Shown: positions 9,138 to 25,643, counted from the stretch's first letter. The stretch: 64,000 bases of DNA from Candidatus Latescibacterota bacterium (GCA_965243025.1 CBDETY010000003.1:1952001-2016000); one strand, 5' to 3'. Notes: generated by a model from the letters alone, not told the origin. A program made the numbers and translations.

Positions 9138-9863
9138 ATGCTGATTCGAGAAGGGGTGGGGATTCCGGCCCGGCTGGCCCTGATCTTTGGGGTTCTCGCC
9201 TCTCCGCTTTTCTCCGAGACCTGGATGGGCCTCGAAGTCGAGCCCGAAAACCGATGTTCCCCCTACAACCGTGATCGGGACTACCGGTATTCTCAATCTC
9301 TGGAGCCGGCCATAGCCGCTCGAATGGGAGGCATCCGATGCCGGTACACCGGCAGGACCTACCGAAGCCTCCGGCAGACCGACATCGAGCACGTGGTCGC
9401 TGTGAGCGAGGCGCATGACTCCGGTCTGTGCGCGGCGGATGCGGCCACCAAACGCCGATTCGCCAACGACCTGCTCAACCTCACCCTGTCGGACCCGGCG
9501 GTTAACCGCTACCAGAAGAGCGGGAAGGATGCGGGAGAGTGGATGCCCCGGATCGACCCCCGAGGGTTTGCGGAGACCGTCATCAAGGTGAAGCGGAAGT
9601 ACGGCCTGAGCATTGACCGGAGGGAGCGGAAGGCACTTGAGATGGCCCTGGCCGGCGACACCCTCACTGTCCTGACCGATTCCCTGGAAGTCCAGGTGGA
9701 CCCTCTACGGGAGGAAAGCCCCCTCGATCTGTGGGACGACAACGGAAACGGGTGGATTACGTGTGCGGAGGCCAGAAGGCACGGGATTGCCCCGGTGCCC
9801 CGAAATCATCCGGCCTACATCTACATGCGCGATGGGGATGGAGACGGTTGGGTCTGTGAGTGA
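9138..9863 (+). CDS. Exported DUF1524/HNH-type nuclease with C-terminal excalibur-like Ca-binding domain
   Basis: Signal-like N-terminus. DIEHVVAVSEAHDSG...FANDLLNLTL...VNRYQKSGKDAGEW (DUF1524-like His-Me core). CAEAR...AP...HPAY...RDGDGDGWVCE (excalibur). Alternative TTG start at 9123. Confidence 0.8.
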   Translation: MLIREGVGIPARLALIFGVLASPLFSETWMGLEVEPENRCSPYNRDRDYRYSQSLEPAIAARMGGIRCRYTGRTYRSLRQTDIEHVVAVSEAHDSGLCAADAATKRRFANDLLNLTLSDPAVNRYQKSGKDAGEWMPRIDPRGFAETVIKVKRKYGLSIDRRERKALEMALAGDTLTVLTDSLEVQVDPLREESPLDLWDDNGNGWITCAEARRHGIAPVPRNHPAYIYMRDGDGDGWVCE

Positions 9864-10058
9864 AACAGAAGCCCGCCGGTCCTGGTGAGGTTTGAGAACA
9901 GTGGCAGAGGGAACCGAAAGGCGGGTCTGGACGAAATCGGCAAAATGCGGGAGGGCTCTTTCCGGCTCAAGAGACTACGCTCGGGAGACATAGTTCAATA
10001 GACGGACAAGAGGCTCCAGCCAAGTGCCTCCCAACCTGCTCGATCCCCCCTGCTCAAA

Positions 10059-10211
10059 TTACCCGTCATCGTCGGCAGTTCTCTTTTCCTCTTCGGGATC
10101 TTCCTTCTCGCTGCACGGGATGCATATGTACTCGCCGGGAGCGGGCTTATAGAACAGGTGCCAGGGCCTGATTTCCTGGCCGCATACGCAGCAGACCGGC
10201 TTGAAAACCAT
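10059..10211 (-). CDS. 50-aa CxxC-CxxC zinc-finger microprotein
   Basis: MVFKPVCCVCGQEIRAWHLFYKPAPGEYICIPCSEKEDPEEEKRTADDDG. The ATG directly follows the TAA of the upstream gene. Not in the ORF track. Confidence 0.6.
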   Translation of the reverse strand: MVFKPVCCVCGQEIRPWHLFYKPAPGEYICIPCSEKEDPEEEKRTADDDG

Positions 10212-10433
10212 TTACTCCCTCGTGTCCCCGATTCTGCCCTCCTCGTCCACGAAGATCCGGAAGGGCGAGGCCACCATTTTTCGGGAGGACTTGGTAAGGC
10301 CGTGCACGCACTCGATGCAGACATCGAACTTCCTCCCCTCGGCCATCCTGCTGGCCGTTCCGACCTTGAGCTGACCGCGCAAGTCGTCTTCGGATACGAC
10401 CTCGTTGCAGATATCACAAATGGTGGTTGCCAT
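10212..10433 (-). CDS. Small zinc-finger protein (phage-like)
   Basis: CDIC...DVCIEC motifs and an AAGGA RBS. Confidence 0.65.
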   Translation of the reverse strand: MATTICDICNEVVSEDDLRGQLKVGTASRMAEGRKFDVCIECVHGLTKSSRKMVASPFRIFVDEEGRIGDTRE

Positions 10434-10659
10434 GTTCCTTTTCCTTTCCTGGTGGATTGAATGCCTTGTAGGACAGGATCAAGCCTTTTTCCTGGTGGTG
10501 GATGATCGCTCCCATGAGCCGGAGATACCTTTCCGGCATAGTTCGCTTTCCCTTCTCCCACAGACACACTTCGGCTTCGCTGACTCCGAGGGCGATGCCC
10601 AGCTCCCATTGCTTCATGCCCAGGGCGTCTCTGGCCCTTTTCAGCTGATTTTGGGTCAT
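10414..10659 (-). CDS. XRE/Cro-like helix-turn-helix regulator
   Basis: MTQNQLKRARDALGMKQWELGIALGVSEAEVCLWEKGKR is an HTH_3 pattern. GGAGG RBS. Confidence 0.85.
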   Translation of the reverse strand: MTQNQLKRARDALGMKQWELGIALGVSEAEVCLWEKGKRTMPERYLRLMGAIIHHQEKGLILSYKAFNPPGKEKEHGNHHL

Positions 10660-11078
10660 TTCTAATTCCCTCCATGTTAGGTTGGTTTTCGGCGGAAATA
10701 CTGACAGAAAGGGCACAGAACGGCCTGAGACGGCCTGTCGGGCATGGTCGTTGACTCGACAGTCCGCTATGCTATTTTTTGATTGGAAGGGTGTGTCCGT
10801 CGCCGTTGCGCCGACGAGAACAGCGGGAAAGGAGTTGTTACCTGAAAGGATAACCAGCCAACTACCACAGGCCGAAAGGCAATGGGGAGGTTAAAACCTT
10901 TCCACTATGTTATACCAGTTTTTTTGCAAAAACGCGGATCTGAGTTCCAACTGGGGTTGAGAATCCGAAGGCCGGGGGGCTCGGGAGCAAGCCCAAGGAA
11001 ATCACCAATTATTCACCTTGGCTGTAGAACATAGAATGACTGCATGGTTCATCCTTCCAAGGAGAATGACTTATAGCT

Positions 11079-11790
11079 TGTCCAGTTCCGGAATGGTGGT
11101 TGACACATCAGACCTCCGTTGTCGGGGGTTTCTCAGCGGCTCCCCAGAAGAGAGTCGATGGAGTGTGGCCGCGAGTTCGGTAGCCCTGATGGGGTCGCTC
11201 GTTGTTGTAGAAGTCGAGGAACCGCTGCAGGGACGCGTCCAGTTGCTGCGGGGTGGTGAAATACCTGCGGCGGAAGGCGACGCGCCAATGCTGGTGAAGG
11301 ATCGTGCTCGAAGCCGTTCGTCCAGGGGTGGTGCGGCTTGGTGCGGGTGTGTCTGATCCCGAGATCGTGACACGCCGCATCGAAACTGCCCTTGAATTCA
11401 CTGCCTCGGTCCGTGAGGACCCGCTGGAACGGCCATCCGGCGGCCTCGTAGAACGGCAGCAGGGAGTCGACGAGGAAGCGCACGGCATGGTCGCTGGTGC
11501 AGGCGGGGATGATACGGGCCACGGCGTAGGAACAGGCCGCATCGCACGCCGTAATCTGCCAGACCTTCCCGACGCCCTTGAGGCGGCCGATGTAGAACGT
11601 GTCGAGACAGACGAGCTCTCCCGGCTCGCTGGCCTGCACATGTCGCCTTTGCCTACGAGCTCGCTGCCGGCGGCGGCGCGTACGCTCGGTGAGCAATCCG
11701 CGGCGCTCGGCGCTGTGACGCTCGAGGAGAAGGAGCCGCTCATGCCGCGTACCCAGTCCGACGCGACGCAGGGCCCGGTAGATGGTGCTC
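11079..11790 (-). mobile_element. IS481-family remnant (5'-truncated, frameshifted integrase-core transposase)
   Basis: PGELVCLDTFYIGRLKGVGKVWQ...VLTDRGSEF...IRHTRTKPHHPWTNG, then a shifted frame ...FYNNERPHQG. A terminus ending in ACA (TGT at 11079-11081) follows the stop. Confidence 0.85.
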
Positions 11791-11897
11791 GGGAGACAGG
11801 GGACGCAACTGCTCAGCCAGCTGCAGGGCGTAAAACCCGGGACCACACGTGGGGTACAACAGGGAATGCGGTTCCTCCCTGTTGAGGACTACAGTGA

Positions 11898-13805
11898 ATG
11901 AGCCTGAGAGACATTAAATACCAGACGGATTATCGCTCTGGTTACGAAAACATCGTTGAAGCCTTTTTCCGTCCGTCACTTCGGGAAGCAAAGCGCTATT
12001 GGCGGGCTGTTGGGTATTTTTCCAGTTCCGCCCTAGAGTCTTTCGGTTCTCCATTGGGTGAGTTCGTAAAGAATGGTGGTTCCATCCGCCTTGTCACCTC
12101 CATCGAGCTTTCATTGACGGATCTTGAGGCGATCGAGAACGGCAGGCCAAAGGAGGAAATCTGCGCCAAACGCTTATTACAAACGATTGAGAACGAATTC
12201 GCCGACGGTGTCGGCGATGGCACCGCCCGCCTTGTGCGATTACTCGAACTTGGCAGGCTGGAAATCCAAATTGCAGTTCCTAAAACCGGAACCGGGATCT
12301 ACCATGAAAAGATCGGGCTTTTCATAGACAACGGTGATTTTGTTGCCTTCACCGGTTCTTCAAATGAAAGCCGTAACGCATTCGAAAACAACAGGGAATG
12401 CATTGACGTATACCCCTCATGGGAAAGCAGCAGGCGTGCCCAACGAAAACGGGATCACTTTGAAGCCCTGTGGAGGCGTACGGATATGGGAGTAGACGTT
12501 TTCAGTTTTCCGGAGGCAGCACAAAAAAAGCTGTTTCGCATTGTCGGTGAATTGGAAGGCGGACGGCGCACTCAGGATACCGACGAAAAGGGAAATCTCT
12601 GGTTGCATCAGAGAGCTGCCATTTCCGAGTTCATGGAAAAAAAACATGGTATTCTAGAAATGGCCACCGGAACGGGCAAGACACGCACAGCCCTTTCAAT
12701 TTTGGCCCACTTGGTCAAGTCGAATGCAATCCATACGGCGATTATCGCGGCGGACGGGAATGATCTACTGGACCAGTGGTGGGGCGACCTCGCCAGCGTT
12801 CTCGCTGAGTGCTATCCCCGTTTTCGGCTATTACGTCACCACGGACCGCATTTTGATCGTGATGAATACTTGATCGATCCAGAGAACACTGTCCTATTAT
12901 GCTCCCGACCGGCGCTGCAAGGAGTCCTCAGACGACTCGGTGAGAGATCGAAAGGTGGAGCGATCCTGATCCAAGACGAGGTTCATCGTTTCGGCAGTGC
13001 CACTCATGTAGCGAAACTTGATGGGGCAGCAGATGCCATCCCCTGGCGCTTGGGCCTCAGCGCAACCCCGGATCGCCAATATGACCAAGACGGAAATGCA
13101 TTCATCAAGCGAAATATCGGTCCAGTTATCTTCCGCTACGGTCTTGAGGAAGCAATCGCCGATGGTATCCTGTGTGAATTCGACTATGTCCCGCTTGAAT
13201 GGAATCCTAGCAAGGACGACAGATTGGCCGTTCACGCTCTGATGCGCCGACGGGCGGCGAGTCAAGGTGGGGACAGCCCGATGACCGAAGAGGAATTTCG
13301 ACGCGAGGTAGCACGCGTCTATAAGATTTCAACCCAAAAGGTCCCCCTCTTCCAGCGCTTCGTAACCGAACATCCCTGGACGCTGGAACGTTGCATAGTA
13401 TTCGTCGCCGAGAAAGCCTATGGGGAGTTAGTGAGGGATCACATTCATGCAGTCACGCCTCGATTCCATACCTACTTTGACGTTGATGATTCAGCAGTCC
13501 TTCGAGAGTTCGCGACCGGTGGAATTGAATGCCTAATAACTTGCCACCGCGTTTCAGAGGGAATCGACATCCGTAGCGTAAAAACGGTAGTACTCCTATC
13601 TGCCGATCGAACAAGGTTGGAAACTATTCAGCGGATCGGACGGTGTCTACGCATAGACCACCGTAATCCAAAAAAGAGAGCTCTGGTAGTCGATTTCATT
13701 CGACGGCGCACTACGCCAGATGACGACCCAACGGCAGACGAAGACCGCAAATTGTGGCTGGAAGCCCTTGGGAAGATAAGGAGAGCTTCAAGTTGTCAAG
13801 AGTGA
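11898..13805 (+). CDS. pbeA: PLD nuclease - DEAD/DEAH SF2 helicase, PT-associated (PbeA-like)
   Basis: N-terminal RAVGYFSS and HEK...D...GSSN (PLD). MATGTGKT, QDEVH, GLSATP, EGIDI and QRIGR (SF2). First gene of a 4-gene overlapping operon beside dnd. Confidence 0.8.
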   Translation: MSLRDIKYQTDYRSGYENIVEAFFRPSLREAKRYWRAVGYFSSSALESFGSPLGEFVKNGGSIRLVTSIELSLTDLEAIENGRPKEEICAKRLLQTIENEFADGVGDGTARLVRLLELGRLEIQIAVPKTGTGIYHEKIGLFIDNGDFVAFTGSSNESRNAFENNRECIDVYPSWESSRRAQRKRDHFEALWRRTDMGVDVFSFPEAAQKKLFRIVGELEGGRRTQDTDEKGNLWLHQRAAISEFMEKKHGILEMATGTGKTRTALSILAHLVKSNAIHTAIIAADGNDLLDQWWGDLASVLAECYPRFRLLRHHGPHFDRDEYLIDPENTVLLCSRPALQGVLRRLGERSKGGAILIQDEVHRFGSATHVAKLDGAADAIPWRLGLSATPDRQYDQDGNAFIKRNIGPVIFRYGLEEAIADGILCEFDYVPLEWNPSKDDRLAVHALMRRRAASQGGDSPMTEEEFRREVARVYKISTQKVPLFQRFVTEHPWTLERCIVFVAEKAYGELVRDHIHAVTPRFHTYFDVDDSAVLREFATGGIECLITCHRVSEGIDIRSVKTVVLLSADRTRLETIQRIGRCLRIDHRNPKKRALVVDFIRRRTTPDDDPTADEDRKLWLEALGKIRRASSCQE

Positions 13806-14029
13806 ATGAGAATGTGATTGCGGCACTAAGGCGCGCAGCGAACAATGCCAATCAGCCAAAGGAAGTCGCAGAGCGTTTTGTTTCTTGGCTGGATGCACTG
13901 GCTACGGGTAACGCGGTGATAACCGACAATAATGAGGCGATAAAGCGAATCTCGGATCTACTGGACCTCGTGCGTGTATCCTCGGAACAAACCAAGGCGG
14001 ACGATCTGAAATCGGAGGTTGGAAAATGA
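13802..14029 (+). CDS. pbeB: Small protein associated with the CxC ATPase (PbeB-like)
   Basis: GTG start overlaps the upstream TGA (GTGA), and its stop overlaps the next ATG. 75 aa, A...QP..VA..FVSWLD.L..GN pattern. Named mainly by position. Confidence 0.65.
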   Translation: MNENVIAALRRAANNANQPKEVAERFVSWLDALATGNAVITDNNEAIKRISDLLDLVRVSSEQTKADDLKSEVGK

Positions 14030-16017
14030 GCGATGTTCGGTTACTGGGTTGGAATGCCAAGGGAATGCGGTGCCCCGACCACGAGGTATCGCTGATTCGA
14101 TCAGACGGAAAACACCACCAGGTCAGCTTGATCCAGATGCCGAATGGCACAGGGAAGACAACAACCCTTGAGTTGCTCCGCGCTGCATTGTCAGGCCCTG
14201 AAGCTTGGGCGGATTCAAATAGGATATCCGAATTTGCGCCCCACCGAAAGGAGGTAGGAAATGGTGAGTTCAAAGTCCGTTTATTAGTCGATGGAAGACC
14301 CTTCACAATTGAAATGTTTCTTCACTTCGACATTAGGCGTGTGGATTTTCGGACGACATGGATATCATCGGTACCCCGGTTCCAACGCCCACCCTCTCTG
14401 TTACGCGTTCTGACTCCAGAGTTCGTTCCCTTCTTTGTCTTCAACGGGGAACTGGCACACGACCTCTTAAATCCAAAAAAGACACGCGCGCGCGAAGCAC
14501 TGGAGGTCCAGTTTCAACTGACAAGTCTAAATCACCTCTCAGGGCTATTGGATAAATACTGGGAAGATAAGACCCGCAATTCAACGGCGAGAGGTGCGAA
14601 GGGGTTAACCCAAAGACGAAACAGGCTGAATGATCTGTTAAAACGAAAAACCAAACTAGTCCAGGAACAGGAAAATCGGAAAAGTAAATTGGTCGAACTA
14701 ACCGCTAGGTTCGCAAAACTCGATGAGCAATACAAAATTCGATTTGATCAGGATAATCGAGCACAAAAGGAGCGGCGGCAACTCGAAGAAAATCTAACTC
14801 GGGCGAAAGAGAATTTATCCAAGTTGGTGGCGGTAACTCTTGATCAGATTCGCCATCCTCACTACCTGTCATTCCATTTCACGGCTGGGCTTCAGGCTCT
14901 CCGACAAAATTTCGAAAAGCTAAAATTACCGGAGAATGTAGCTAAGGAATTTTTTGAAGACTTAGCGGGAGCAAATCACTGTGTTTGTGGGGAAGAAATG
15001 ACTGACACACGGAAGATGAGGGTTCTAGAACGGCGGGATTCTTACCTAGGAAAGGAGGATCAAGGCATCCTGAATGGGATAAAGGGGGCAATTAAAGATA
15101 CAGCCGGTGCAGATCCCCGAGTCTATCGGGAGCAACTTAACAGGAAGCTAAATCGCCTTAATGATGGGGTCCGAGAACGTGACCTTATTCAAGGAGAGTT
15201 AGATGTTCTTGAACGAAAAAGGCTGGATGAGGGCGATGATGAGTTAACCGCAATGAAAGCCGAACTCAATGAGTTGGAGGAGGACATTGTAACGATTAAG
15301 AATCGGCTCGCGGAGTTGGACTCGGATGATGACTATGGCCGAGGTGACAAAACTGATTCTTTAAAAGCTCTTAACAAACTGATTATGCGGGCAAGGGATT
15401 TGGTTGACGAGGCGGCGGAAACTCGGGATGTGCGTCTGAAGACGGACCTTTTGAAAAATTTAATTGAAACAGCGGTAACCGAAGCTTCTAGGACCATCGC
15501 CAGCAAACTGGTTCAGTTTACCAATGAACGTCTAGAGACCATCCTTGTACGGGCACCGCTGCGTGTTTCGGATGTAGGAGACAGCGTAGTTCTTGATGGA
15601 CAAAGTCGTGGAAGCCCAGGACAAACCTTAGCCCTCGGTTATGCTTTTCTTCTAGGACTTTTTGACGCGGGGCAAGTGAGCCTGCCCTTTGTTGTCGACA
15701 GTCCCACCGGGGCACTGGATAAAAGTGTTCGACGGGAGATCGCAGAACTCCTCCCTGGGATGTCACAACAATTGGTTGCCTTCACTACCAGTTCGGAGTA
15801 TGACCGGTTCGTACCAGTAATCGATCACGCAGTTGGTGGAGATGTTCAATACCTGACAATGTTCAGGTTGAACAAATCAACTCGTACACTTCTCAAAAAT
15901 GTCGACCCTAGGTCGGTAACCTTGACAGAGAATGGTGCTCTTGTCGGATCCAAACCATTTTTTGAAACTTTTGATAGCGAGACTTACGACGACCCGGTGC
16001 CAGAGAGAGAAGACTAA
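14026..16017 (+). CDS. pbeC: SMC/Rad50-like CxC ABC ATPase (PbeC-like)
   Basis: Walker A MPNGTGKTT, FFVFNGE, long coiled coils with a central HCVCG Zn hook, signature SPGQ, Walker B/D-loop FVVDSPTGALD. Confidence 0.8.
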   Translation: MSDVRLLGWNAKGMRCPDHEVSLIRSDGKHHQVSLIQMPNGTGKTTTLELLRAALSGPEAWADSNRISEFAPHRKEVGNGEFKVRLLVDGRPFTIEMFLHFDIRRVDFRTTWISSVPRFQRPPSLLRVLTPEFVPFFVFNGELAHDLLNPKKTRAREALEVQFQLTSLNHLSGLLDKYWEDKTRNSTARGAKGLTQRRNRLNDLLKRKTKLVQEQENRKSKLVELTARFAKLDEQYKIRFDQDNRAQKERRQLEENLTRAKENLSKLVAVTLDQIRHPHYLSFHFTAGLQALRQNFEKLKLPENVAKEFFEDLAGANHCVCGEEMTDTRKMRVLERRDSYLGKEDQGILNGIKGAIKDTAGADPRVYREQLNRKLNRLNDGVRERDLIQGELDVLERKRLDEGDDELTAMKAELNELEEDIVTIKNRLAELDSDDDYGRGDKTDSLKALNKLIMRARDLVDEAAETRDVRLKTDLLKNLIETAVTEASRTIASKLVQFTNERLETILVRAPLRVSDVGDSVVLDGQSRGSPGQTLALGYAFLLGLFDAGQVSLPFVVDSPTGALDKSVRREIAELLPGMSQQLVAFTTSSEYDRFVPVIDHAVGGDVQYLTMFRLNKSTRTLLKNVDPRSVTLTENGALVGSKPFFETFDSETYDDPVPERED

Positions 16018-16550
16018 TGAGCTTTCGCCTTCGCATTGATGCCGAAAAGTGGTTTTCCGATATCGAATCAGATCTAGAATATAGGTTTGACGCATTTTAC
16101 TTTTGCCTAATGGCAGGATTCTCGGCCGTAAGAAAAGCTCCTATGACCTCGGAGGACAAACCGGCCTTCGTAGACGATTTTCCTGGACCATACAAACTTA
16201 ATCAAAATTTACTCCTTGGTGGGCTGATAAATGCAGAACTGCGGGATCTCCTGGGTCGCAGTGTTGCCATGAGCGATAAACCCGTCGTCGAGCAAACAGT
16301 GTCTAGGCTCCTATCCGTAACTGGATCAAATACTTACCTGAGCACCGGAGTAAATGGTGGCGCGGCGTTAATGAACGAGTATTCTAGTGGTGGCTTCAAC
16401 GTTCTTTCTGAACATCTTGACAAACCACGGCGACTCGAAACGTTCCTCCGTGGCTTCTCCAATCTAATTGAAAAACTGGATGCCCAAAGGATGGAGGTGG
16501 AAACCCTTCTTGAATCCGAACCCTTAAATGAGAATGTAATAACACCTTAA
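16017..16550 (+). CDS. pbeD: PbeD-like protein
   Basis: TAATG overlap with the ATPase stop. 177 aa with FDxFYFCLMAG. Fourth gene of the operon; named by synteny. Confidence 0.6.
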   Translation: MSFRLRIDAEKWFSDIESDLEYRFDAFYFCLMAGFSAVRKAPMTSEDKPAFVDDFPGPYKLNQNLLLGGLINAELRDLLGRSVAMSDKPVVEQTVSRLLSVTGSNTYLSTGVNGGAALMNEYSSGGFNVLSEHLDKPRRLETFLRGFSNLIEKLDAQRMEVETLLESEPLNENVITP

Positions 16551-16621
16551 CACAGCCTCTCCATTCAAAGTTCTAACTGTTCGCCTCCCCCAAAATACAT
16601 AAAGAGGTAAAAAACAAGCCG

Positions 16622-18499
16622 ATGGACCTAGATTCCTACATTCAACCGGTGGATTATCTTGAAGCAAAGCGAAAATTGCTGGGTGAAGTCTTTTTGGTTC
16701 CTGAGCGACAATTTGTCATCCCATTGAACCAAAGGCCTTGGGCTTGGAGGGACAGCAAAGATGTCCAATCGTTTTTGAGCGATTTCTGGAACATACTTTT
16801 TGCCTTTTTTGATCCGGATTCGTCCCCCAAGTGGGAAGCAAGAAAAGGAATCCAGCGACCGCCTCATTTTTTCGGGACGTTTGTTTTTTTCCGGCCTCCG
16901 GCCCACAATAATACCCTTGAGATTTTTGATGGACAGCAAAGAATAACCGCAGTTACCATGCTGTGCAGAATTCTCAGAGAACTCGCCATGGAACAAAGCG
17001 TAAAACCTGGTGGACACCAAACCTTGGCGCTCCAGTTGTATGGTGGCTTCGACAGCTGGCTCCGTGTATCCCCTTCCTCCGCAACGCCCCGACTTAGGCC
17101 GAACATTCTTTTCCAGGGTTTATTTAATGCACTAATTCTCCAGTCTCAAAATGAGACCGAACGAAAAGCGGAGATAATGAAACTCCCAGAAATACAACGC
17201 CACCATACGATTTCCAAAAAACTAATTAGCAGTTTCAGGCACATGCGTGCCTGGATTCGAGAACGAACTGACAGCGAAACTCCCGATGACTTAACAAGCT
17301 TTTTGAGCGCTTCTCATCAAGTATTGCGTTATTTGTTTTCCTGCATCGAAACATTGATTTTTGACGAACAATACTCTTACGAGGTATTTGGATGTCTTAA
17401 TGCCCGGGGAGAAAGGTTAACACACGCCGATAACATAAAGAATGAACTATTCAAAATCGCCAATGCCGAACACCATCGGACAATTTCTGAAACTTGGAAC
17501 CGAATTGGAGAGAATGTTCCGGGGCAAGACATAGGCGAATTTCTACGACGGCGTCATATTGCACTTTTTGATACTTGCAAGAAGCAGGAGATATACAGCA
17601 AAATTAATAGAACGGAATTGTCCCAGATTTCTACGGTTGAGCTAATATCTGACTGGGAACAAGATAGCCGTACTGTACGTCGAATCCTAAATCGAGACGC
17701 AAGTCAAGCAAAGGGGAAAACCTTAGAGAGGTTGAAGTGCATTTTTGATATCCTGAACGTAGGGTTAGCTTACATCCCACTTCTTTCGGCGGCTAGGAAA
17801 TTCCTACCTACTGATAAAGACAACTTCCATAAGTGTGTTTGCTTAGTGGAAAATTTCGTGTTTCGAACCCTAACCATTGGACAAATGGACACTTCTCAAC
17901 TTGAACAAAGGCTTGGAGAAGCAGCGAGGGGTCTGGTTGATGGTTGGTCTGTGGATAAGTTTCGGGAATTTTTGGCTGACCATAACAATGATTCGACCTT
18001 TAAATCAGATTTCGAAAAACACAGTGAACGGCGTTCTGGGGTTCAGTACTATATTTTGAGTGAATTGGAAAAGTTTTCATTGGGGAGCGGAAAAGGTGTT
18101 GTTCCAGGTGATCACGAATCAGCCAAAAACCACATAGAGCACATTCTACCCAAAAGGCTCTCGCAGGATAAAGGAAGGCAAGGTGAATGGGGTTGGGCTA
18201 GGGCTAATATGAACCAACACCGCAATCTAACTAATCGAATCGGAAATCTCCTCATTCTCGAAAGCGACATTAATAAATCGGTTGGAAACCATGTTTTCTC
18301 AGTCAAACAAACGGGAGAATTTAAGAAGAAAAGAAGTGGGGAGATAAAGCAGATTAAGTGCTACCGAGACTCATCCCTACCTTGGGCAAAGAGACTGCAC
18401 AACAGGCAAGCTTGGCGGCAATGGACGGAAACCCAGATTCAGAAAAGACAGGTAATGATGGCTAACGATGCTGTCAAAGTTTGGAACATTCAAGCCTGA
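16622..18499 (+). CDS. DUF262-DUF1524 protein (GmrSD type IV restriction / SspE-like architecture)
   Basis: FVIPLNQRPWAW, IFDGQQRIT and FGCLNARGERLTHADNIKN (DUF262). HIEHILPK...NRIGNLLILESDINKSVGN (DUF1524 HNH). Confidence 0.9.
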   Translation: MDLDSYIQPVDYLEAKRKLLGEVFLVPERQFVIPLNQRPWAWRDSKDVQSFLSDFWNILFAFFDPDSSPKWEARKGIQRPPHFFGTFVFFRPPAHNNTLEIFDGQQRITAVTMLCRILRELAMEQSVKPGGHQTLALQLYGGFDSWLRVSPSSATPRLRPNILFQGLFNALILQSQNETERKAEIMKLPEIQRHHTISKKLISSFRHMRAWIRERTDSETPDDLTSFLSASHQVLRYLFSCIETLIFDEQYSYEVFGCLNARGERLTHADNIKNELFKIANAEHHRTISETWNRIGENVPGQDIGEFLRRRHIALFDTCKKQEIYSKINRTELSQISTVELISDWEQDSRTVRRILNRDASQAKGKTLERLKCIFDILNVGLAYIPLLSAARKFLPTDKDNFHKCVCLVENFVFRTLTIGQMDTSQLEQRLGEAARGLVDGWSVDKFREFLADHNNDSTFKSDFEKHSERRSGVQYYILSELEKFSLGSGKGVVPGDHESAKNHIEHILPKRLSQDKGRQGEWGWARANMNQHRNLTNRIGNLLILESDINKSVGNHVFSVKQTGEFKKKRSGEIKQIKCYRDSSLPWAKRLHNRQAWRQWTETQIQKRQVMMANDAVKVWNIQA

Positions 18500-18612
18500 A
18501 TCGCCATTGTCGAAAATCCCTCCTTTTTCCCGTTTCCGGGGTTTTTTCTAAGGCTTCGGGAGGCTCCTTAGTGCCTGAAAAAAATACAGCCCCATTACTT
18601 TGTTTTCGAAAA

Positions 18613-19782
18613 TTAACGCAACCCACTAATTTGCTTTGCTATTTCTTCCCAATCTACATTCCGGGTCAGATGGCACCACGACAGGCGGACCGCCCCTTCG
18701 ATGGCTGCGTCCGGCAGTTTCATCGCCCGAAGGACATGGCTTGGCTCGTAGGTTTGGGACGTGCAAGCTGATCCATTCGAAATGGCCGCAATGTCTTTCA
18801 GCGCAACCATAAGGGCTTCCGAATCAATTCCCTCCACAGAAAAGTTCAAGACATGGGGCAACGTTTGCCTGGGATCACCATGTAGGCGGATTCCCAGAGG
18901 GTTCAACGCATTTAAAGCTTGCTCCCGGAGCTCAAGACAACGAACTCGCCGGTTTTCGTGATTTTTCAGGGCCATTTCGGCCGCCAGACCAAACCCCACA
19001 ATCAAGGGAACAGGTAATGTGCCCGGTCGTAGCCCCCGTTCCTGACCCCCGCCGTAGGCTAAAGGCGCCATCGGTGGACGCCTGAACCCGCGCCTACGTG
19101 CGATCAACGCACCGATTCCAAGGGGCCCGTAGACTTTGTGCGAACTCACGCTGATGAGGTCGATTCTGGGGTATTGGAGCGGCAGCAGCTCCTTGCCGAA
19201 TCCCTGAGCTGCATCGACATGAAAAAACGCTTCGTAGCCCGAAAGGGAATCTGCGATTGCACCAATCGGCTGTCTCACCCCGGTTTCATTGTTTACCTGC
19301 ATTACCGAGACGAGGAGCGTGTCTGGCCTCAGTGAGGCAACGATTTCCTCGACCGCTACGGCACCCGAGGTCTGCGGCTCGATTAAGGTGACCGAGAATC
19401 CCCGCCTTTCCAGTACTTCAAGTGGCTCGAGAACGGCCTTGTGCTCGATCGCAGTCGAGACGACGTGCCGACGCCCTTCTGCTTCTCCCCAAGCAGCGAG
19501 TCCGAGAATGGCAAGGTTGTTACTTTCTGTGGCGCCGCTCGTGAAGACAACCTCGTCGGACTTACTTCCCACGGACGAGGCGATTTTCTCACGGGCCTGC
19601 TGCACTGCGTGCTTCGCCCGAGTTCCGTATTCGTGGGTTCGACTGCCGGCATTGCCGATCTCCTCCGTCAACCAATAGGAAACAGCCTCGAGAACCGCTG
19701 GTTCAAGTGGGGATGTCGCATTGCAGTCCAGATATACAGGCCCAGCGCGATGTTCGGATCTATATACGAACGTCCGTTTCAT
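18613..19782 (-). CDS. dndA: Cysteine desulfurase DndA (IscS-like)
   Basis: YLDCNATSP, FTSGATESNN, HVDAAQ, SSHKVYGP (PLP lysine) and SNGSACTS (catalytic Cys). Divergent from dndB. Alternative TTG start at 19791. Confidence 0.93.
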   Translation of the reverse strand: MKRTFVYRSEHRAGPVYLDCNATSPLEPAVLEAVSYWLTEEIGNAGSRTHEYGTRAKHAVQQAREKIASSVGSKSDEVVFTSGATESNNLAILGLAAWGEAEGRRHVVSTAIEHKAVLEPLEVLERRGFSVTLIEPQTSGAVAVEEIVASLRPDTLLVSVMQVNNETGVRQPIGAIADSLSGYEAFFHVDAAQGFGKELLPLQYPRIDLISVSSHKVYGPLGIGALIARRRGFRRPPMAPLAYGGGQERGLRPGTLPVPLIVGFGLAAEMALKNHENRRVRCLELREQALNALNPLGIRLHGDPRQTLPHVLNFSVEGIDSEALMVALKDIAAISNGSACTSQTYEPSHVLRAMKLPDAAIEGAVRLSWCHLTRNVDWEEIAKQISGLR

Positions 19783-19784
19783 TA

Positions 19785-19843
19785 TTGACAAACATTCTCG
19801 AAATGGTTAGTATTAGTATACGCACAACCTTGGCGCTTGGGAA
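19785..19843. promoter_or_regulatory. Overlapping sigma70 promoters for dndBCDE (+) and dndA (-)
   Basis: Plus strand: TTGACA (19785-90), 17 nt, TAGTAT (19808-13). Minus strand: TTCCCA (19843-38), 17 nt, TATACT (19820-15). Confidence 0.7.
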
Positions 19844-19849
19844 GAAAAA

Positions 19850-20956
19850 ATGACTACCGGCTTCGAATACGTGTTCCCTGCCATTCGGGGCATCCAGGCC
19901 CAGCGGGAGTACTACGTTTCCATGTGTCCAATGCGTCTGCTCCCCAAGCTTTTTCTTTTTGACGAAGAAGAACTCGTTCCAGAACTTCGAGCCCAGCGCC
20001 ATCTGAACAAAGCTCGTCTCCCGGAGTTGTCCCGGTACATCACTGAAAATGCTGACAATTATGTCTTTTCCGCCATCACCGTCTCCGTCGATGGCGAGGT
20101 CACCTTCGACCAGATCGTCGACGAAGGCGGCAGTAGCCGCATTGGTACACTTCGCATTCCCATGTCCGCTCGATTCATTATCAATGATGGCCAGCACCGC
20201 AGGGCGGCGATCGATTTGGCCCTCCGGAAGAAACCCGAACTAGGAGATGAAAGCATCGCGGTGGTTTTCTTTCTTGATCAAGGCCTTGAACGGTGCCAGC
20301 AGATGTTCGCGGATCTCAACCGCTATGCGATTCGCCCGTCGAGGTCGCTCAGCATCCTTTATGACTACCGTGATCAGACTGCACGGCTGACAAAAGCGTT
20401 GATTGCCGAATCGTCCGTGTTTCGGGACGTCGTTGAGTTCGAGAAAACGAGCCTGTCAAAGCGATCAGGACGTTTGTTCACACTCAGTGCTATCTATCAT
20501 GCGACCCAAACGTTGATCAGCGAAGTGGAAGAAACCGATCCCCAGGAGACAGCCGGCTTGGCCCTGAAGTTCTGGGAGACCGTCGCAGAGAATTTGAGTG
20601 AGTGGGAGGATTTCCGAACCGGTGAACTTGCCGCTGGTGAACTGCGGAAAGATTACATACACACCCACAGTGTGGTTTTGCAAGCCTTGGCGCACACTGG
20701 TAAAACCTTGATCGCACGGCATCCCCATCAGTGGCAAAAGAAACTGGCCAAGATAAACAAAATCGACTGGAGACGGTCCAATAGTAATTTGTGGGAAGGC
20801 CGAGCCATGATTGGTGGTCAAATTTCAAAAGCCTACAAGAATGTCGTTCTGACCGCAAATGCAATCAAGATGCACCTTGATCTTGAACTGACTGAGGACG
20901 AACAACAAGCCGAAATCGCCTTTAATCGGGGAATGAATGGAAAAAAACAAGGGTAG
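19850..20956 (+). CDS. dndB: DNA sulfur modification protein DndB (DGQHR domain regulator)
   Basis: FPAIRGIQAQREYY, RAQRHLN, INDGQHR and QQMFADLNRYA. Confidence 0.95.
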   Translation: MTTGFEYVFPAIRGIQAQREYYVSMCPMRLLPKLFLFDEEELVPELRAQRHLNKARLPELSRYITENADNYVFSAITVSVDGEVTFDQIVDEGGSSRIGTLRIPMSARFIINDGQHRRAAIDLALRKKPELGDESIAVVFFLDQGLERCQQMFADLNRYAIRPSRSLSILYDYRDQTARLTKALIAESSVFRDVVEFEKTSLSKRSGRLFTLSAIYHATQTLISEVEETDPQETAGLALKFWETVAENLSEWEDFRTGELAAGELRKDYIHTHSVVLQALAHTGKTLIARHPHQWQKKLAKINKIDWRRSNSNLWEGRAMIGGQISKAYKNVVLTANAIKMHLDLELTEDEQQAEIAFNRGMNGKKQG

Positions 20957-22466
20957 GAAAAAGCAAGTCTCGGCCTTCGAGCAAGGAGGCTTAAAGGCCT
21001 CAGTTGCTTCCGCCATTCGGAAAGTGGCAGCACTTTACGAGAGTGATGAAACACCGTGGGTAATTGGGTATAGCGGCGGAAAGGATTCAACCGCTGTCCT
21101 CCAACTCGTCTGGCTCTCACTTGTGGAAATACCGCTTGAGAAACGCACCAAGCCCGTCTTTGTGATTAGCACGGACACGCTGGTTGAGAACCCGATTGTC
21201 GCACTCTGGGTCTCAAACTCGCTGGAGCGGATGGATGGCGAAGCGAAAAAACAGAATATCCCATTGACAGCTCACCGCTTGACACCTGCTACTGAGAATA
21301 CGTTCTGGGTCAATCTCATTGGTCGAGGCTACCCTGCACCACGTCCAAAGTTTCGGTGGTGTACCGAGCGCCTCAAAATAATGCCATCGACCGAGTTCAT
21401 TAGTTCGGTTGTGCAAAAACACGGCGAAGCCATTCTGGTCTTGGGAACGCGTAAAGCAGAAAGCCGCGCACGTGCGCGGGTTATGGAACGCTTTGAAAAA
21501 AAGCGCGTGCGCGACGCACTCAGTCCTAACGGAAGCCTCCCAAACTCCTATGTATATACGCCAATTGAGAACTGGACAAATGACGATGTTTGGTTGTTCC
21601 TCATGCAAATCCGGAATCCTTGGGGTTACAATAACAAAGATCTCCTGACGATGTACCAAGGAGCCTCTGCGGATGGTGAGTGCCCGCTGGTTGTCGACAC
21701 GAGCACCCCGAGTTGCGGGGACAGCCGTTTCGGGTGCTGGGTTTGCACCCTTGTGGAAAAGGACAAGTCAATGCAGGCAATGATCCAGAACGACCAAGAA
21801 AAGGAGTGGATGCTGCCGCTACTAGGGCTGCGCAACGAACTTGATCCGCCAAAGTCACGGCAGGCCGACCGCCCACTGCGGGACTTCCGGCGCATGAGCG
21901 GAGCAGTTCAGCTTTTTCATGATCGCCCCATCCCTGGACCCTATAAGCAGCACGTTCGCGAAAATTGGCTGCGGAAAGTTTTGGAGGCGCAGCAGCATGT
22001 CCGCGAGAACGGTCCGGAGGAGGTTCGCGAAATTGAACTGATTACCCTCGACGAGCTTGAAGAAATCCGGCGAATCTGGGTTGTCGATAAGCACGAGTTA
22101 GAAGACAGTCTTCCCTCGGTTTACCGTGAATCGACCGGACAGCCATATCCCGGCAGCCGGATCGATGACAATCCTATCGTTGGGTCCGGTGATATGAATC
22201 TACTTCGCGAGATATGCGAAAAAGACGATCTCCACTACCAACTCACGCGGGAGCTTCTTTCGATCGAAAAAAAACATAAGTCGATGCTACGGCGGGCAGG
22301 GATTTTTGATGTGATTGAGAGTGCCTTTCGCCGACATTTCTACGATGACGAGGACGATGCTCTTGAACGTGCACGCCAAAGGGAGGGAACACTAGAGGCA
22401 GCGCGAACTCGCGTTTTTGCACAAACATCGAGCAACATCCAAGAATCTCTATTTGACGAGCCGTAG
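20937..22466 (+). CDS. dndC: DNA phosphorothioation sulfurtransferase DndC (PAPS reductase family, Fe-S)
   Basis: GYSGGKDS, DTLVENP, RWCTERLKI and ECPLVVD...SCGDSRFGCWVCT. Confidence 0.96.
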   Translation: MEKNKGRKKQVSAFEQGGLKASVASAIRKVAALYESDETPWVIGYSGGKDSTAVLQLVWLSLVEIPLEKRTKPVFVISTDTLVENPIVALWVSNSLERMDGEAKKQNIPLTAHRLTPATENTFWVNLIGRGYPAPRPKFRWCTERLKIMPSTEFISSVVQKHGEAILVLGTRKAESRARARVMERFEKKRVRDALSPNGSLPNSYVYTPIENWTNDDVWLFLMQIRNPWGYNNKDLLTMYQGASADGECPLVVDTSTPSCGDSRFGCWVCTLVEKDKSMQAMIQNDQEKEWMLPLLGLRNELDPPKSRQADRPLRDFRRMSGAVQLFHDRPIPGPYKQHVRENWLRKVLEAQQHVRENGPEEVREIELITLDELEEIRRIWVVDKHELEDSLPSVYRESTGQPYPGSRIDDNPIVGSGDMNLLREICEKDDLHYQLTRELLSIEKKHKSMLRRAGIFDVIESAFRRHFYDDEDDALERARQREGTLEAARTRVFAQTSSNIQESLFDEP

Positions 22467-22480
22467 TCAGAGCCTAATAA

Positions 22481-24472
22481 ATGATATTGGATGAAATCAC
22501 GCTCTATAACTTCGGTCTGTACTCAGATCGGCAGACCATTTCGCTTACTCCGGCTTCAGCTAGCAAACCGGTAGTCCTGCTCGGGGGATTGAACGGTGGC
22601 GGGAAGACGACCTTTCTGGACGCGCTTCACCTCTGTTTGTTTGGGCCCCACGCAAAGATCTCCAATCGTGGGTCGCTTTCCTACGGAGAATACCTGAGCC
22701 GTTCCATCCATCGCGGAGTGAAAACACTCGAGGCCGCGATTGAGATTACGTTTCGTCATACAAGCGAAGGTCAAGAAGACAGCTACAACCTGGAACGATC
22801 CTGGTACGTCTTTAACGGTAATTGTAGAGAGGTTTTCAAAGTTAGGAAGAATGGAGTCGCAGATTCAGCTCTTTCCGAAAATTGGGCAACACAGGTTGAG
22901 GATTTTGTCCCACCGAACATAGCCCACTTGTTCTTATTCGATGGTGAACAAATTGAAGGCTATGCCTCGGACGAAAAATCCTCCGAATTGATTGGTGCAG
23001 CGATACAGAACCTGCTTGGACTGGATATGGTCGATCAATTGGAGAAAGATCTTCTCGTTTTCGAGAGACGGAAACGATCTGATAAGAAAAATGATGTGGC
23101 CCTGGCGGAGATAAAAGGCGCAGAAATTGATTTGCTCGACCTTCGAAGACGAGCAGATGAACTGACCCAAGAGCGTGCTTCTCTGCAAACGCATGGGATC
23201 GACCGCGTGGAACGTGAGCTGGAAAAAGTAGAAGATAAATATCGCAAGCTTGGGGGCGATCTTTTCGATCAGCGTTTGAAATTGGAACGGTGTTTGTGTG
23301 AGGCCGAGACGGCTGTTTTTCAGAGCGAGAATGCGCTACGGGAGGCAGCTGCTGGTTTATTGCCGTTGATGATGGTCGAGGCCCTTATTGAATCCGCTCA
23401 CACAAGAGACCGACATGAGGAAGATTGTCGGCGCGCGCGAGAAGTGGTCGATGTGCTGCAGGCACGTGATCGTGCAGCACTGAAAAAACTTCGGTCTCAA
23501 TCTCTGTCCGAAGACGTTCTTGAAACGATGAGGCAGTTTTTCAAAGCCGACCGTTCAGACCGCAGGGCACTAGGGAAGAAAGAAACCCTCCTTGGTCTTT
23601 CCCCCGAGATACGGACCGATTTTCACAACTTGATGCGCGGAGACCTTGGGAAGGCGTTGGCCAATGCCAGCCAGGAACTTAAGCGGCATAAGGAACACGA
23701 AGCCCGAGCCGAGGCTGCTCGAGCGGAATTCGAGAGCATCCCGAGCGCTGATACGATTAGCGAGGTCGCCAGAGAACGCAACGAGCTGAAAGGGGAGCTT
23801 GGAACGCTCAAGGCACAACATGCTGCTTTGTCCAGAGAGATTGATCGGTTGTACAGAGAAATAGATCGGAAAGGCCAAGCCCTTACCCGCCTGCACGAGG
23901 CAGAAGCCAAAGCGATGAATGATCGAGATGACCGGACCCGCACTCTGCGGCACGCTGCGAAAGTTCGCGGAACACTCAAGGCGTATCGCAAAGCGGTTGT
24001 CGAACGCCATGTACGCCGCATTGAGCAGCTCGTTCTCGAAAGCTACAAGCAACTCCTCCGAAAAGCTACCCTTGTGACCCGACTGTCCATCGACCCTCAA
24101 CAGTTCTCGATCACATTATTCGGCGGCGAAGGACGGATTCTCACCACGGAGCGTCTGTCGGCCGGTGAACGGCAACTTCTTGGTATTGCCCTGCTCTGGG
24201 GGCTTGCAAAAGCATCGGGCCGGCCCTTGCCGACTGCCATTGATACGCCGTTGGGAAGGTTGGACGCTGGGCACAGGATGCATCTCGTCGAGCGCTACCT
24301 GCCCTTCGCCAGTCACCAAGTCTTGCTGCTGTCTACCGACGAGGAAATCGCGGGCGATTACCTCGACCGGCTTAAGCCGTGGATTGGGAAGACCTATTTC
24401 CTTGATTATGACGACCATACGGAAAAAACTCGAATTGTTCCTGGGTATTTCCAAGAAATGGAGGCAGCGTAA
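22481..24472 (+). CDS. dndD: DNA sulfur modification ATPase DndD
   Basis: GLNGGGKTT, LFLFDGEQI, coiled coil, LSAGERQ, IDTPLGRLD and ASHQVLLLSTDEEI. Confidence 0.96.
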   Translation: MILDEITLYNFGLYSDRQTISLTPASASKPVVLLGGLNGGGKTTFLDALHLCLFGPHAKISNRGSLSYGEYLSRSIHRGVKTLEAAIEITFRHTSEGQEDSYNLERSWYVFNGNCREVFKVRKNGVADSALSENWATQVEDFVPPNIAHLFLFDGEQIEGYASDEKSSELIGAAIQNLLGLDMVDQLEKDLLVFERRKRSDKKNDVALAEIKGAEIDLLDLRRRADELTQERASLQTHGIDRVERELEKVEDKYRKLGGDLFDQRLKLERCLCEAETAVFQSENALREAAAGLLPLMMVEALIESAHTRDRHEEDCRRAREVVDVLQARDRAALKKLRSQSLSEDVLETMRQFFKADRSDRRALGKKETLLGLSPEIRTDFHNLMRGDLGKALANASQELKRHKEHEARAEAARAEFESIPSADTISEVARERNELKGELGTLKAQHAALSREIDRLYREIDRKGQALTRLHEAEAKAMNDRDDRTRTLRHAAKVRGTLKAYRKAVVERHVRRIEQLVLESYKQLLRKATLVTRLSIDPQQFSITLFGGEGRILTTERLSAGERQLLGIALLWGLAKASGRPLPTAIDTPLGRLDAGHRMHLVERYLPFASHQVLLLSTDEEIAGDYLDRLKPWIGKTYFLDYDDHTEKTRIVPGYFQEMEAA

Positions 24473-24855
24473 TGGTTGTTGACCACATCAGACTGTCCCA
24501 GCAGGCCAAGGATCAGCTTGTCAAGCTCAAACGGGTCACCGGAATTGAACACTGGAATGTGCTATGCCGCTGGGCATTGTGCGTCTCGTTCGCCGAGCCG
24601 AGTTTCCCTCCTTCCTCAAAGATTCCTGCGGACAGCAATGTAGAGATGAGCTGGAAAGTATTTGGGGGTCGGTACGCCGGTCTCTATATGGCACTTTTGA
24701 AAGAGCGCTGTGTGCGCGACGGTCTTGGCACGGATAGCGATACCCTATCTCAACAATTCCGGCTGCATCTCCACCGTGGCATTTCCTACCTCGCAGGAAA
24801 CAGGAATATACGTAGTATCACGGACCTTATTGCGCTTCCAGTTGCTCAAGAATAG
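24472..24855 (+). CDS. dndE: DNA sulfur modification protein DndE
   Basis: IRLSQQAKDQLVKLKRVTGIEHWNVLCRWALCVS...EMSWKVFGG...FRLHLHRGISYL. TAATG overlap with dndD. Confidence 0.95.
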   Translation: MVVDHIRLSQQAKDQLVKLKRVTGIEHWNVLCRWALCVSFAEPSFPPSSKIPADSNVEMSWKVFGGRYAGLYMALLKERCVRDGLGTDSDTLSQQFRLHLHRGISYLAGNRNIRSITDLIALPVAQE

Positions 24856-25506
24856 ATATCGTCTTCGTTTGCCGCGATACGGGGCTGGCCCTCCTTGGGT
24901 GGGTTCCCGTCCAGCGATGAACTTGCCCCCCAACTACTGTTCTGTAATGCGACAGAACGATTGGTCCGACGCAAATAGGCGCACCTGAAACGCTCGCTCA
25001 ACCTCGCTCAACGAAAATGGATATCTCCGTAAAGTAGGGAAAGGGGGATCTCAGGGGACCCCCAGGAACAAGAAGAAAAGGGCAGCAAATCAACTACTAA
25101 TGGATTTACCTAAATTCTGCTGTCCGGTTGTCCAAAGACTGGGTTCACCTGACGTATTTGCCGGGGCAGCTCGCTGGTTTTTTGATCGCTTGCCCTGCAC
25201 GAATCCTCTGGCGATCAGGATCTCCTCCTCATCGGCGAGGCCCTTGCCGTCGAGGAATTCGGCCAGGAGGTCGTTATCCCTCAGTGGCACAGCGACCCGC
25301 CATTCCTGAAATCTCCCGGATAACACCGCGACTGGCGTCCTTCGAAGCGTAGCCTCCGGCGTCCTCTCGATTTTCCCCAGACAGTCGTTTCCCCCGACTC
25401 GACCTGAACAGATGGCGGAATCGCAGGGACTTCGTTTTCGCCGATTGCTGGGGGACTGCCTTCCCCTGCAAGGCCGACCTTTCCCTACTGCCAGGCCAGC
25501 CTTTTT

Positions 25507-25643
25507 CGGAATACTCTAGAGGCACATGCAACGGGGAAGCCGGCAGGATCCGCTGCCGCTTCCCAGTCCTTCTGTCGGTGACACGCCGACAGAATCACCT
25601 TCCCACTGAAACCGAAAGGACTGCCATGGGAGCGTGAATCACA
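25507..25643 (+). repeat. Copy A of a ~135-nt structured leader element (copy B at 31888-32025)
   Basis: Near-identical to 31888-32025. Hairpins GGGAAG-C-CGGCAG/CTGCCG-CTTCCC and TTCTGTCGG/CCGACAGAA. Patchy homology continues upstream (CGTCCTCTCGATT, TTCCTGAAATCTCCC, GACTGCC). Confidence 0.85.

Follow-up and report, generated by a model that had tools for sequence, protein, structure and literature searches.

A DndI-type candidate effector of an unstudied clade between the Pbe and Dnd genes of a phosphorothioation defence island in a Latescibacterota bacterium

In this study we examine a 64,000-nucleotide stretch of DNA from a Candidatus Latescibacterota bacterium (CBDETY010000003.1:1952001-2016000, within a contig of about 6.8 Mb; hereafter the window), and in particular the DNA phosphorothioation (PT) defence locus at 11898-24855. 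Ten open reading frames (ORFs) make up this locus, namely a four-gene pbe cassette, a gene for a 625-aa protein with DUF262 and DUF1524 domains, dndA, which converges on that gene, and then dndBCDE (Table 1). We propose that the 625-aa protein may well be a PT-gated nicking effector of the DndI type, with pbe and not dndFGH as its operon partners. What is new here is a DndI-type effector that belongs to an unstudied clade, has an altered sensing motif and is attached to pbe, not to dndFGH. Which nucleases serve PT marks is debated, and the window, together with two further loci described below, adds a compact candidate clade of about 620 aa that follows dnd across three phyla.

The two-domain architecture read from the DNA by the original prediction is borne out by Pfam (GmrSD_N 78.7 bits, GmrSD_C 72.3 bits) and by the motifs DGQQR at residues 103-107 and EHILP at 506-510. 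Relatives of the protein at E<=1e-5 fall into 55 clusters, nearly all of about 620 aa and the nearest 64% identical, and a family profile was built from 31 of their members. Against the PDB this profile matched DndI (9jfl) best, at 118.4 bits (E 2.9e-33, residues 18-465), followed by an 818-aa SspE-like DUF262 chain (83 bits), SspE (68 bits) and BrxU (25 bits); a single-sequence phmmer search of the PDB with the 625-aa protein returned SspE alone (E 0.01) and did not recover DndI. The AlphaFold2 (AF2) model of the protein is confident (predicted local distance difference test score, pLDDT, 90.4; predicted template modelling score, pTM, 0.82), and Foldseek again places 9jfl_A first (E 8.6e-16, TMq 0.46), with SspE (E 3.4e-14, template modelling (TM) score 0.40) and BrxU (E 2e-4, TM 0.33) behind it. 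Among solved structures none lies nearer to the 625-aa protein than DndI, yet the relationship is distant.

The catalytic motifs are well preserved. Across the family alignment of 31 sequences D103, G104, Q105, Q106, E506, H507, N542 and N551 are invariant and R107 is kept in at least 90%. R107 aligns with R87 in the DGQQR motif of DndI and N551 with N541, two residues reported to be essential, since their mutation abolishes defence (PMC11662687). These features make it very improbable that the gene is a decaying or inactive passenger: although its guanine-plus-cytosine (GC) content is the lowest of the cluster (0.442) and the protein has no NCBIfam match, the ORF is of full length, none of the NTPase and HNH motif residues has been lost, and the model is a confident one.

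DndI itself has a short history. ORF5 was the unexplained gene of the dpt/dnd cluster of Salmonella Cerro 87 (PMC2978375) until Tang et al. (2024; PMC11662687) renamed it dndI and described its product as a DUF262 and DUF1524 protein, co-transcribed with dndFGH, that has ATPase (D83GQQR87) and nickase (HNH, N541) activity, constitutes a defence system with IscS-DndBCDE alone, and senses PT via a hydrophobic patch including Y25, the equivalent of Y30 in SspE. The same authors report dndBCD and dndI without dndFGH in 61 genomes and all of these genes together in 72. The original prediction knew of no description of a Dnd-coupled DUF262-DUF1524 effector; this no longer holds, because with DndI a Dnd-coupled protein of SspE/GmrSD architecture is already in print, and the Orf5 models of PADLOC, which to judge by their name derive from the Salmonella ORF5 gene, match the 625-aa protein at 152.4 bits. 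The protein would presumably also pass the operational screen used by Tang et al. (hidden Markov model E<1e-4, no more than 15 ORFs from dndC).

The likeness to DndI of Salmonella enterica serovar Cerro 87 (PDB 9JFL) comprises the N-terminal DUF262 domain with DGQQR, the C-terminal DUF1524 HNH domain, the adjacent dnd genes and, for the window gene on the strength of its layout, a probable co-transcription with a second restriction module. The two differ in length (596 aa in DndI), at the sensing position (Tyr25 against Asn36), in their partner (dndFGH against pbeABCD) and in the use of IscS where the window has its own dndA. SspE, the second-best solved match, likewise combines DUF262 with DUF1524; it is longer (770-820 aa), and its Tyr30 is not conserved in the 625-aa protein. 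What SspE reads are the single-strand CpsCA marks of Ssp and not those of Dnd. The partnership of SspE (PDB 6JIV/7DRS) with sspABCD has no counterpart here, as the scanned window ORFs gave no match for sspB or sspC, and the matches for SspA and SspD are cross-hits of DndA and DndC.

According to the reading that we favour, dndA and dndBCDE would write PT onto host DNA, and two candidate effector modules, pbeABCD and then the 625-aa protein, would be supplied from the plus strand upstream of dnd. The DUF262 NTPase domain would read, through DGQQR, the PT status of the DNA that it holds, and NTP hydrolysis would gate the HNH domain (EH...N...N), with the result that invader DNA without the mark would be nicked and PT-marked host DNA left intact; PT might act either by releasing the enzyme, as in DndI, or by activating it, as in SspE. 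The locus would then be the pbe counterpart of dndFGHI, with one modification module and two effectors. DndI is reported to be toxic without PT (PMC11662687), and a toxicity of this kind, coupled with co-transcription with a restriction module, would explain a tight linkage to dnd.

Such a linkage is seen wherever the surroundings of a close relative can be read. A genome scan with a generic DGQQR pattern gave 38 loci among 540 matches. Among the matches listed, the members of the clade to which the 625-aa protein belongs are one from Agrobacterium sp. (L001, 55% identity) and one from an Acidimicrobiaceae metagenome-assembled genome (MAG; L002, 33%), both with the motif NQRPW. A dndC and a dndD gene lie within 10 kb of the clade member in the window and in both of these loci (3/3, or 2/2 when the window is set aside for ascertainment), and the three hosts belong to three phyla. 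In the Agrobacterium locus dndB, dndC, dndD and dndE occupy 2-4914 (tblastn with window proteins) and are followed, 3' of dndE, by a superfamily 2 (SF2) helicase without a PLD domain (5009-7381), a 411-aa protein, a DUF2958 gene on the opposite strand and the clade member at 9992-11854; of the 36 ORFs in 4500-13999 that reach 70 aa, five were typed by PADLOC and Pfam. In the Acidimicrobiaceae locus, where 10 of 76 ORFs of at least 100 aa were typed, the genes are packed tightly on one strand in the order dndD (4461-6485), a DndE-domain protein (6422-7339), dndC (7336-8439), a methyltransferase-like gene (8411-9883) and the clade member (9887-11917). By comparison, dndBCD is reported in 568 of 31,478 genomes (PMC11662687), and among the matches listed none of the 36 remote DUF262 loci (L003-L038) matches the Dnd or Pbe proteins of the window (tblastn E<=1e-5). 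The proteins of these remote loci are at most 31% identical to the 625-aa protein over the best aligned segment and carry Y/F-type or other non-NQRPW motifs where readable. A tblastn search of plasmids with the 625-aa protein yielded 17 records, all at no more than 25% identity and with no clade member among them, and blastn with the window dndC for an E. coli dnd locus gave no match.

Some further features of these two loci may be recorded. In the Agrobacterium locus the DndI-like gene is flanked by the DUF2958 gene and a DUF1612/HTH_13 gene (12220-13323), and the 411-aa protein, in the helicase and 411-aa region at 5009-9485, matches PADLOC PDC-M38A weakly. In the Acidimicrobiaceae locus the DndE-domain protein has 305 aa and dndC encodes 367 aa, and the methyltransferase-like gene between dndC and the DndI-like gene encodes 490 aa.

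The same two loci bear on whether the protein is a true fifth subunit of Pbe, a 'PbeE' that physically requires PbeABCD. The gene lies on the pbe strand 71 bp after the pbeD-position gene, with no terminator-like site between them and with a GC content continuous with that of pbeC and pbeD. There is also a hint that pbe is tied to the clade elsewhere, in that two clade clusters, P0006 (61% identity) and P0011 (56%), have longest contigs of exactly the same size (16,074 and 16,862 bases) as those of the PbeD-homologue clusters P0362 and P0365, respectively; chance alone would give about 0.09 such coincidences, and control comparisons gave none in 54x120 pairs of DndI-like and prolyl-tRNA synthetase (ProRS) clusters and one in 62x120 pairs of PbeD and ProRS clusters. 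A match in contig size is, however, indirect, and neither the Agrobacterium nor the Acidimicrobiaceae locus has pbeB, pbeC or pbeD (tblastn E<=1e-5), the former showing weak C-terminal PbeA matches on its SF2 helicase and nothing further of Pbe. The clade therefore associates with dnd and not with pbe. Moreover, DndI acts with DndBCDE alone, and the published account of Pbe is of a conserved cassette of four genes (PMC6459918). Given the two loci without pbe, we consider an obligate fifth subunit improbable, and the 'fifth effector' of Pbe suggested by the original prediction was overstated.

A more serious alternative concerns the need for PT, and it turns on the N-terminal patch by which the clade is recognised. 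In a FastTree phylogeny of 175 full-length rows (fragments shorter than 540 aa left out, some long branches flagged), rows with NQRP[WF] group with one SQRPW row in a clade of 67, at a Shimodaira-Hasegawa-like (SH-like) support of 91; with two QQRPW rows and one NQRGW row it comprises 70 rows at support 99. The patch reads P23-T-Y25-Q-R in DndI, P-P-Y30-Q-R in SspE and P34-L-N36-Q-R-P-W in the 625-aa protein, in which P34 and Q37 are kept as the equivalents of DndI P23 and Q26. Lower-scoring representatives have P-x-[YF]-QR-x-[YF]-x-W instead.

Several observations weigh against a DndI-type, PT-gated enzyme. The tyrosine that senses PT is absent, with DndI Y25 and SspE Y30 both aligning with Asn36, and this is a property of the family, since asparagine occupies the position in 45 of the 49 relatives with a readable N-terminus in the set of 55 clusters. 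The top PADLOC matches are three HEC-06 models (189-205 bits, over the whole model length), with HEC-06 at 204.7 bits ahead of Orf5, SspE at 45.6 and mREase_IV at 19.9. Identity to DndI in the Foldseek alignment is 16%. The family profile finds 3,606 representatives at E<=1e-30 in a library of 1.84 billion proteins clustered at 50% identity, and the best 150 of these all score at least 263 bits against 118 for DndI, so that the protein is not a close relative (orthologue) of the Salmonella enzyme. The genomic contexts that can be read number three, two of them from clade members among the matches listed. Finally, the hairpin that might end a transcript 3' of the gene has a 5-bp stem and is no stabler than shuffled sequence (18500-18560: z -0.30; 74 of 200 shuffles fold equally well or better).

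On these grounds the 625-aa protein might instead be a PT-independent, stand-alone GmrSD-like nuclease of the HEC-06 or type IV kind, lodged in the island as a back-up against phages that escape or mimic PT. HEC-06, which offers the best PADLOC models with full coverage, is a single-gene GmrSD-like system with DGQQR and an EHxxP HNH motif; it is reported to protect E. coli K-12 deltaRM by itself, with no dnd genes mentioned, and the discussion of the same preprint describes GmrSD-like genes as commonly embedded in other systems as complementary defences (10.1101/2024.01.29.577857). The window, too, holds other defence genes near by, among them a TmtA gene (558 bits). Typing of 28 sampled proteins with PADLOC showed that all eight clade members behave alike: HEC-06 models give them 197-231 bits and Orf5 models no more than 185. 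For proteins of about 555-562 aa from outside the clade, by contrast, the HEC-06 scores are 393-631 bits and the Orf5 scores rise to 647, from which the clade emerges as an outlier of HEC-06 as well as of Orf5; one sampled row, P0222, had no PADLOC match at E<=1e-50. The HEC-06 (PDLC04154-57) and Orf5 (PDLC02686-02702) models themselves overlap heavily, protein P0250 scoring 647.5 bits on Orf5 and 600.5 on HEC-06, and since the two sets thus describe largely the same proteins, the name of the model decides neither Dnd linkage nor a need for PT. HEC-06 differs further in being embedded in Hma, where the window gene lies between pbe and dnd, in working in E. coli without dnd, and in being about 60 aa shorter than the window protein.

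With regard to the type IV variant of this alternative, BrxU is a GmrSD-family type IV enzyme, and type IV enzymes are not expected to need a linked modification module. BrxU (PDB 7P9K) has the same two Pfam domains as the 625-aa protein, but it is the weakest solved match; with BrxU as the solved representative, the closest kinship is not with type IV. The original prediction had named both a PT-reading effector and a type IV enzyme; the former fits better, as profile and fold lie nearest to DndI and then SspE and dnd is adjacent in every readable context, and the latter has lost ground. A grouping with ordinary GmrSD, which that prediction had taken as telling against itself, is likewise not what profile and fold suggest. 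Adjacency to dnd in three of three readable clade members, against none of 36 remote relatives among the matches listed, also speaks against independence from PT. The missing tyrosine and the affinity to HEC-06 nevertheless sustain a PT-independent nuclease as a realistic, if less probable, explanation.

The favoured assignment of the protein as a DndI-type effector can be extended, more speculatively, to the whole clade. It is conceivable, though we would lean against it, that the P-x-N-QRPW proteins are a separate group of Dnd-obligate, PT-reading nucleases that sense sulfur without the tyrosine, by means of Asn36 and the Pro-Trp that follows QR, and that the member in the window shares a transcript with pbeABCD; a single PT mark would in that case serve two effectors of different mechanism, a CxC/HKD-helicase machine that halts replication and an enzyme that nicks DNA. 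What the clade lacks is the one residue for which PT sensing has to date been demonstrated in DndI and SspE alike. If its members are PT-dependent, DUF262 domains can read PT without that tyrosine, and a DndI-type partner can accompany Pbe systems as it does DndFGH. If they are PT-independent, the window gene adds to the HEC-06-like nucleases that reside in defence islands.

The modification module on which this proposal depends is complete, as originally predicted, each of the five genes exceeding its own NCBIfam equivalog cut-off: DndA 511 bits (TIGR03235, cut-off 480), DndB 518.9 (TIGR03233, 328), DndC 679.3 (TIGR03183, 290.4), DndD 586.4 (TIGR03185, 245.85) and DndE 128.9 (TIGR03184, 71.85), with Pfam matches for DndB (452 bits) and DndE (149 bits). 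The translations contain motifs that we take to be the PLP (pyridoxal phosphate)-binding lysine (SSHK at 216) and the active-site cysteine (GSAC at 340) of DndA, DGQHR of DndB (at 113), the PP-loop of DndC (SGGKDS at 46) and the Walker A motif of DndD (GLNGGGKT at 36). The predicted absence of dndF, dndG and dndH also holds within the window, where none was matched among 60 ORFs of at least 250 aa and the scanned smaller ORFs of at least 140 aa.

The features expected of PbeA to PbeC in a PbeABCD/CxC system, namely an HKD/PLD-SF2 helicase, an Sp-CxC small protein and a CxC ATPase, are likewise present. PbeA matches PADLOC PbeA PDLC02703 at 754.4 bits over residues 3-605, has the Pfam domains PLDc_2, ResIII and Helicase_C, and contains H136-E-K138 followed by GSSN, GTGKT at 258 and DEVH at 360; against TIGR04095 (dnd_restrict_1) it scores 149 bits, under the cut-off of 600. 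PbeB passes the Pfam Sp-CxC cut-off marginally (28.5 bits against 27.5) and has no PADLOC or NCBIfam match. PbeC has a Walker A motif (NGTGKT) and a CxC motif (C319-V-C321) in the middle of its 663 residues; its best PADLOC matches are PbeC models, weakly (top 87.9 bits), with DndD models at 52 bits, and Pfam gives no match at default settings, AAA_23 appearing at E 0.0013.

The fourth protein, of 177 aa, has 63 homologous clusters and no Pfam (even at E<=10), PADLOC or NCBIfam match and no PDB profile match, and its AF2 model (pLDDT 82.5) found no PDB fold match at E<=0.001 with Foldseek. As a lead only, PF27807 (DNA_S_mod_dnd_assoc_4) is annotated on 13-15% of the members in the nearest ESM Atlas clusters. 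PbeD is described as a DndE cognate of clade 2 with two ribbon-helix-helix (RHH) repeats (PMC10853773). In contrast to this published PbeD, a DndE likeness of the 177-aa protein was not detected by Pfam, PDB profiles, Foldseek or hhalign, the last giving a probability of 0.2% against a shallow DndE alignment of two sequences.

The combination of Dnd with Pbe is known from DndCDEA-PbeABCD of Haloterrigena jeotgali (PMC6459918), since reinterpreted as a CxC ABC-ATPase system (PMC10853773). The window agrees with it in gene order, HKD-helicase, small protein, CxC ATPase and adjacency of dnd, and differs in its bacterial host, the presence of dndB, the additional DUF262-DUF1524 gene downstream and a fourth protein without detectable DndE likeness. 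A combination of PbeABCD with a DndI-type gene was not found in the main texts searched, although supplementary tables may list such loci. PMC11662687, the one paper listed as naming both DndI and PbeABCD, mentions the latter once, in the introduction; GmrSD, DUF262, DUF1524 and DndI do not occur in the main text of PMC10853773, nor orf5, DUF262, DUF1524 or GmrSD in PMC6459918; and PMC12914056 places a DUF262 gene near one dndC. PMC10853773 does argue that in many cases DndFGH is uncoupled from modification and that restriction falls to other nucleases encoded near by.

All ten genes lie where the original prediction had put them, and the gene junctions read from the DNA agree with the translational coupling that it had proposed for the four pbe genes, with stop and start codons overlapping as GTGA between pbeA and pbeB, ATGA between pbeB and pbeC and TAATG between pbeC and the pbeD-position gene; dndD and dndE overlap as TAATG as well. 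The predicted 71-bp gap before the 625-aa gene, on the common strand, was also measured. In a pattern scan the spacer contains no promoter-like or terminator-like site; it folds weakly (-5.0 kcal/mol, z -0.5), and AGAGG lies at 16603-16607, 14 nt 5' of the ATG of the 625-aa gene. The shared strand, the lack of a terminator-like site in the gap and a GC content that falls steadily from pbeC (0.481) through the pbeD-position gene (0.461) to the 625-aa gene hint at one operon and make co-transcription of the 625-aa gene with pbeABCD plausible from the arrangement of the DNA. The divergent region between dndA and dndB holds one promoter-like site on each strand, TTGACA-17-TAGTAT on the plus strand at 19785-19813 (10/12 matches) and another on the minus strand at 19843-19815 (9/12). 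In the scanned region as a whole promoter-like sites show no excess (9 against a shuffle mean of 9.1), and terminator-like sites are no more numerous than in shuffled sequence.

Table 1. Genes and other features of the Pbe, DndI-like and Dnd locus (positions in the window)
Feature	Position	Strand	Basis or remark
pbeA, PLD/HKD-like nuclease domain and SF2 helicase, 635 aa	11898..13805	+	PADLOC, Pfam, motifs
pbeB, small protein, 75 aa	13802..14029	+	GTG start at 13802; longest ORF, from GTG 13754, 91 aa
pbeC, coiled-coil ABC ATPase of the CxC type, 663 aa	14026..16017	+	PADLOC PbeC models, motifs
Gene in the pbeD position, 177 aa	16017..16550	+	Position, TAATG overlap with pbeC
71-bp spacer between the pbeD-position gene and the DUF262-DUF1524 gene	16551..16621		
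DndI-like protein, DUF262 (NTPase), helical middle domain and DUF1524 (HNH), 625 aa, P-x-N-QRPW clade	16622..18499	+	
Short hairpin and T-run, weak terminator candidate	18528..18547	+	Pattern scan, 3' of the stop codon of the DUF262-DUF1524 gene
dndA, cysteine desulfurase, 392 aa, TTG start	18613..19791	-	TIGR03235
Divergent dndA/dndB intergenic region, one promoter-like site per strand	19785..19843		Pattern scan
dndB, 368 aa	19850..20956	+	TIGR03233, Pfam DndB
dndC, 509 aa	20937..22466	+	TIGR03183
dndD, 663 aa	22481..24472	+	TIGR03185
dndE, 127 aa	24472..24855	+	TIGR03184, Pfam DndE

A high-GC bacterium has acquired this region, a PT defence island, by horizontal transfer. In the window GC content runs at 45-60% over positions 1-34,000 and at about 70% beyond, and the step near 34 kb marks the island boundary. 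By gene it is 0.518 for pbeA, 0.561 for dndA, about 0.52 for dndB to dndE and 0.688 for the housekeeping gene proS. ProRS shares about 70% identity with proteins named from Latescibacterota and Gemmatimonadota MAGs, whereas the named relatives of the 625-aa protein are alphaproteobacterial, and this contrast in kinship, together with that in GC content, identifies the cluster as a foreign island. A patch of low GC content (0.468) lies at 2001-4000, and no tRNA gene was found in the window.

Two inverted transposase genes of the IS1595 family (DDE_Tnp_IS1595), at 4960-5952 on the minus strand and 32016-33104 on the plus strand, bracket about 26 kb with the Pbe, DndI-like, Dnd and Tiamat genes. 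Their arms at 5418-5774 and 32215-32571 were recognised by a repeat finder as inverted and 72-79% complementary, although blastn saw no mutual similarity between the two regions. The layout resembles a composite transposon whose copies have diverged. Direct repeats at 25287-25643 and 31390-32025, 76-94% identical and about 6.38 kb apart, bracket the TmtA module and repeat, just 3' of dndE, the stretch running into the right-hand IS1595 gene; they suggest a remnant of the end of an insertion sequence and an island assembled stepwise.

The window contains a number of other genes with defence or nuclease features. Adjoining dndE, a 1084-aa ORF (25803-29057, minus strand) matches PADLOC TmtA (Tiamat) over its whole length at 558.3 bits, with no Pfam match, and represents a second defence system. 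A 246-aa ORF with a TTG start (9123-9863, plus strand) combines a DUF1524/GmrSD_C domain (30.2 bits) with a C-terminal Excalibur calcium-binding domain and looks, from its domain content, like a stand-alone HNH-type nuclease without DUF262. An ankyrin-repeat protein with five DNA repeats of about 100 nt (6760-7440, plus strand) matches the PADLOC candidate PDC-M72A at 130.6 bits, and the flanks of its gene, 6657-6836 and 7511-7691, are direct repeats of 81-88% identity. Directly upstream of pbeA lies an integrase-core (rve) fragment (11133-11846, minus strand) of host-like GC content (0.66). A RadC-like JAB protein is encoded at 5994-6431 on the minus strand, and a 164-aa protein at 7864-8358 on the plus strand unites SWIB/MDM2 and DnaJ domains, an unusual pairing.

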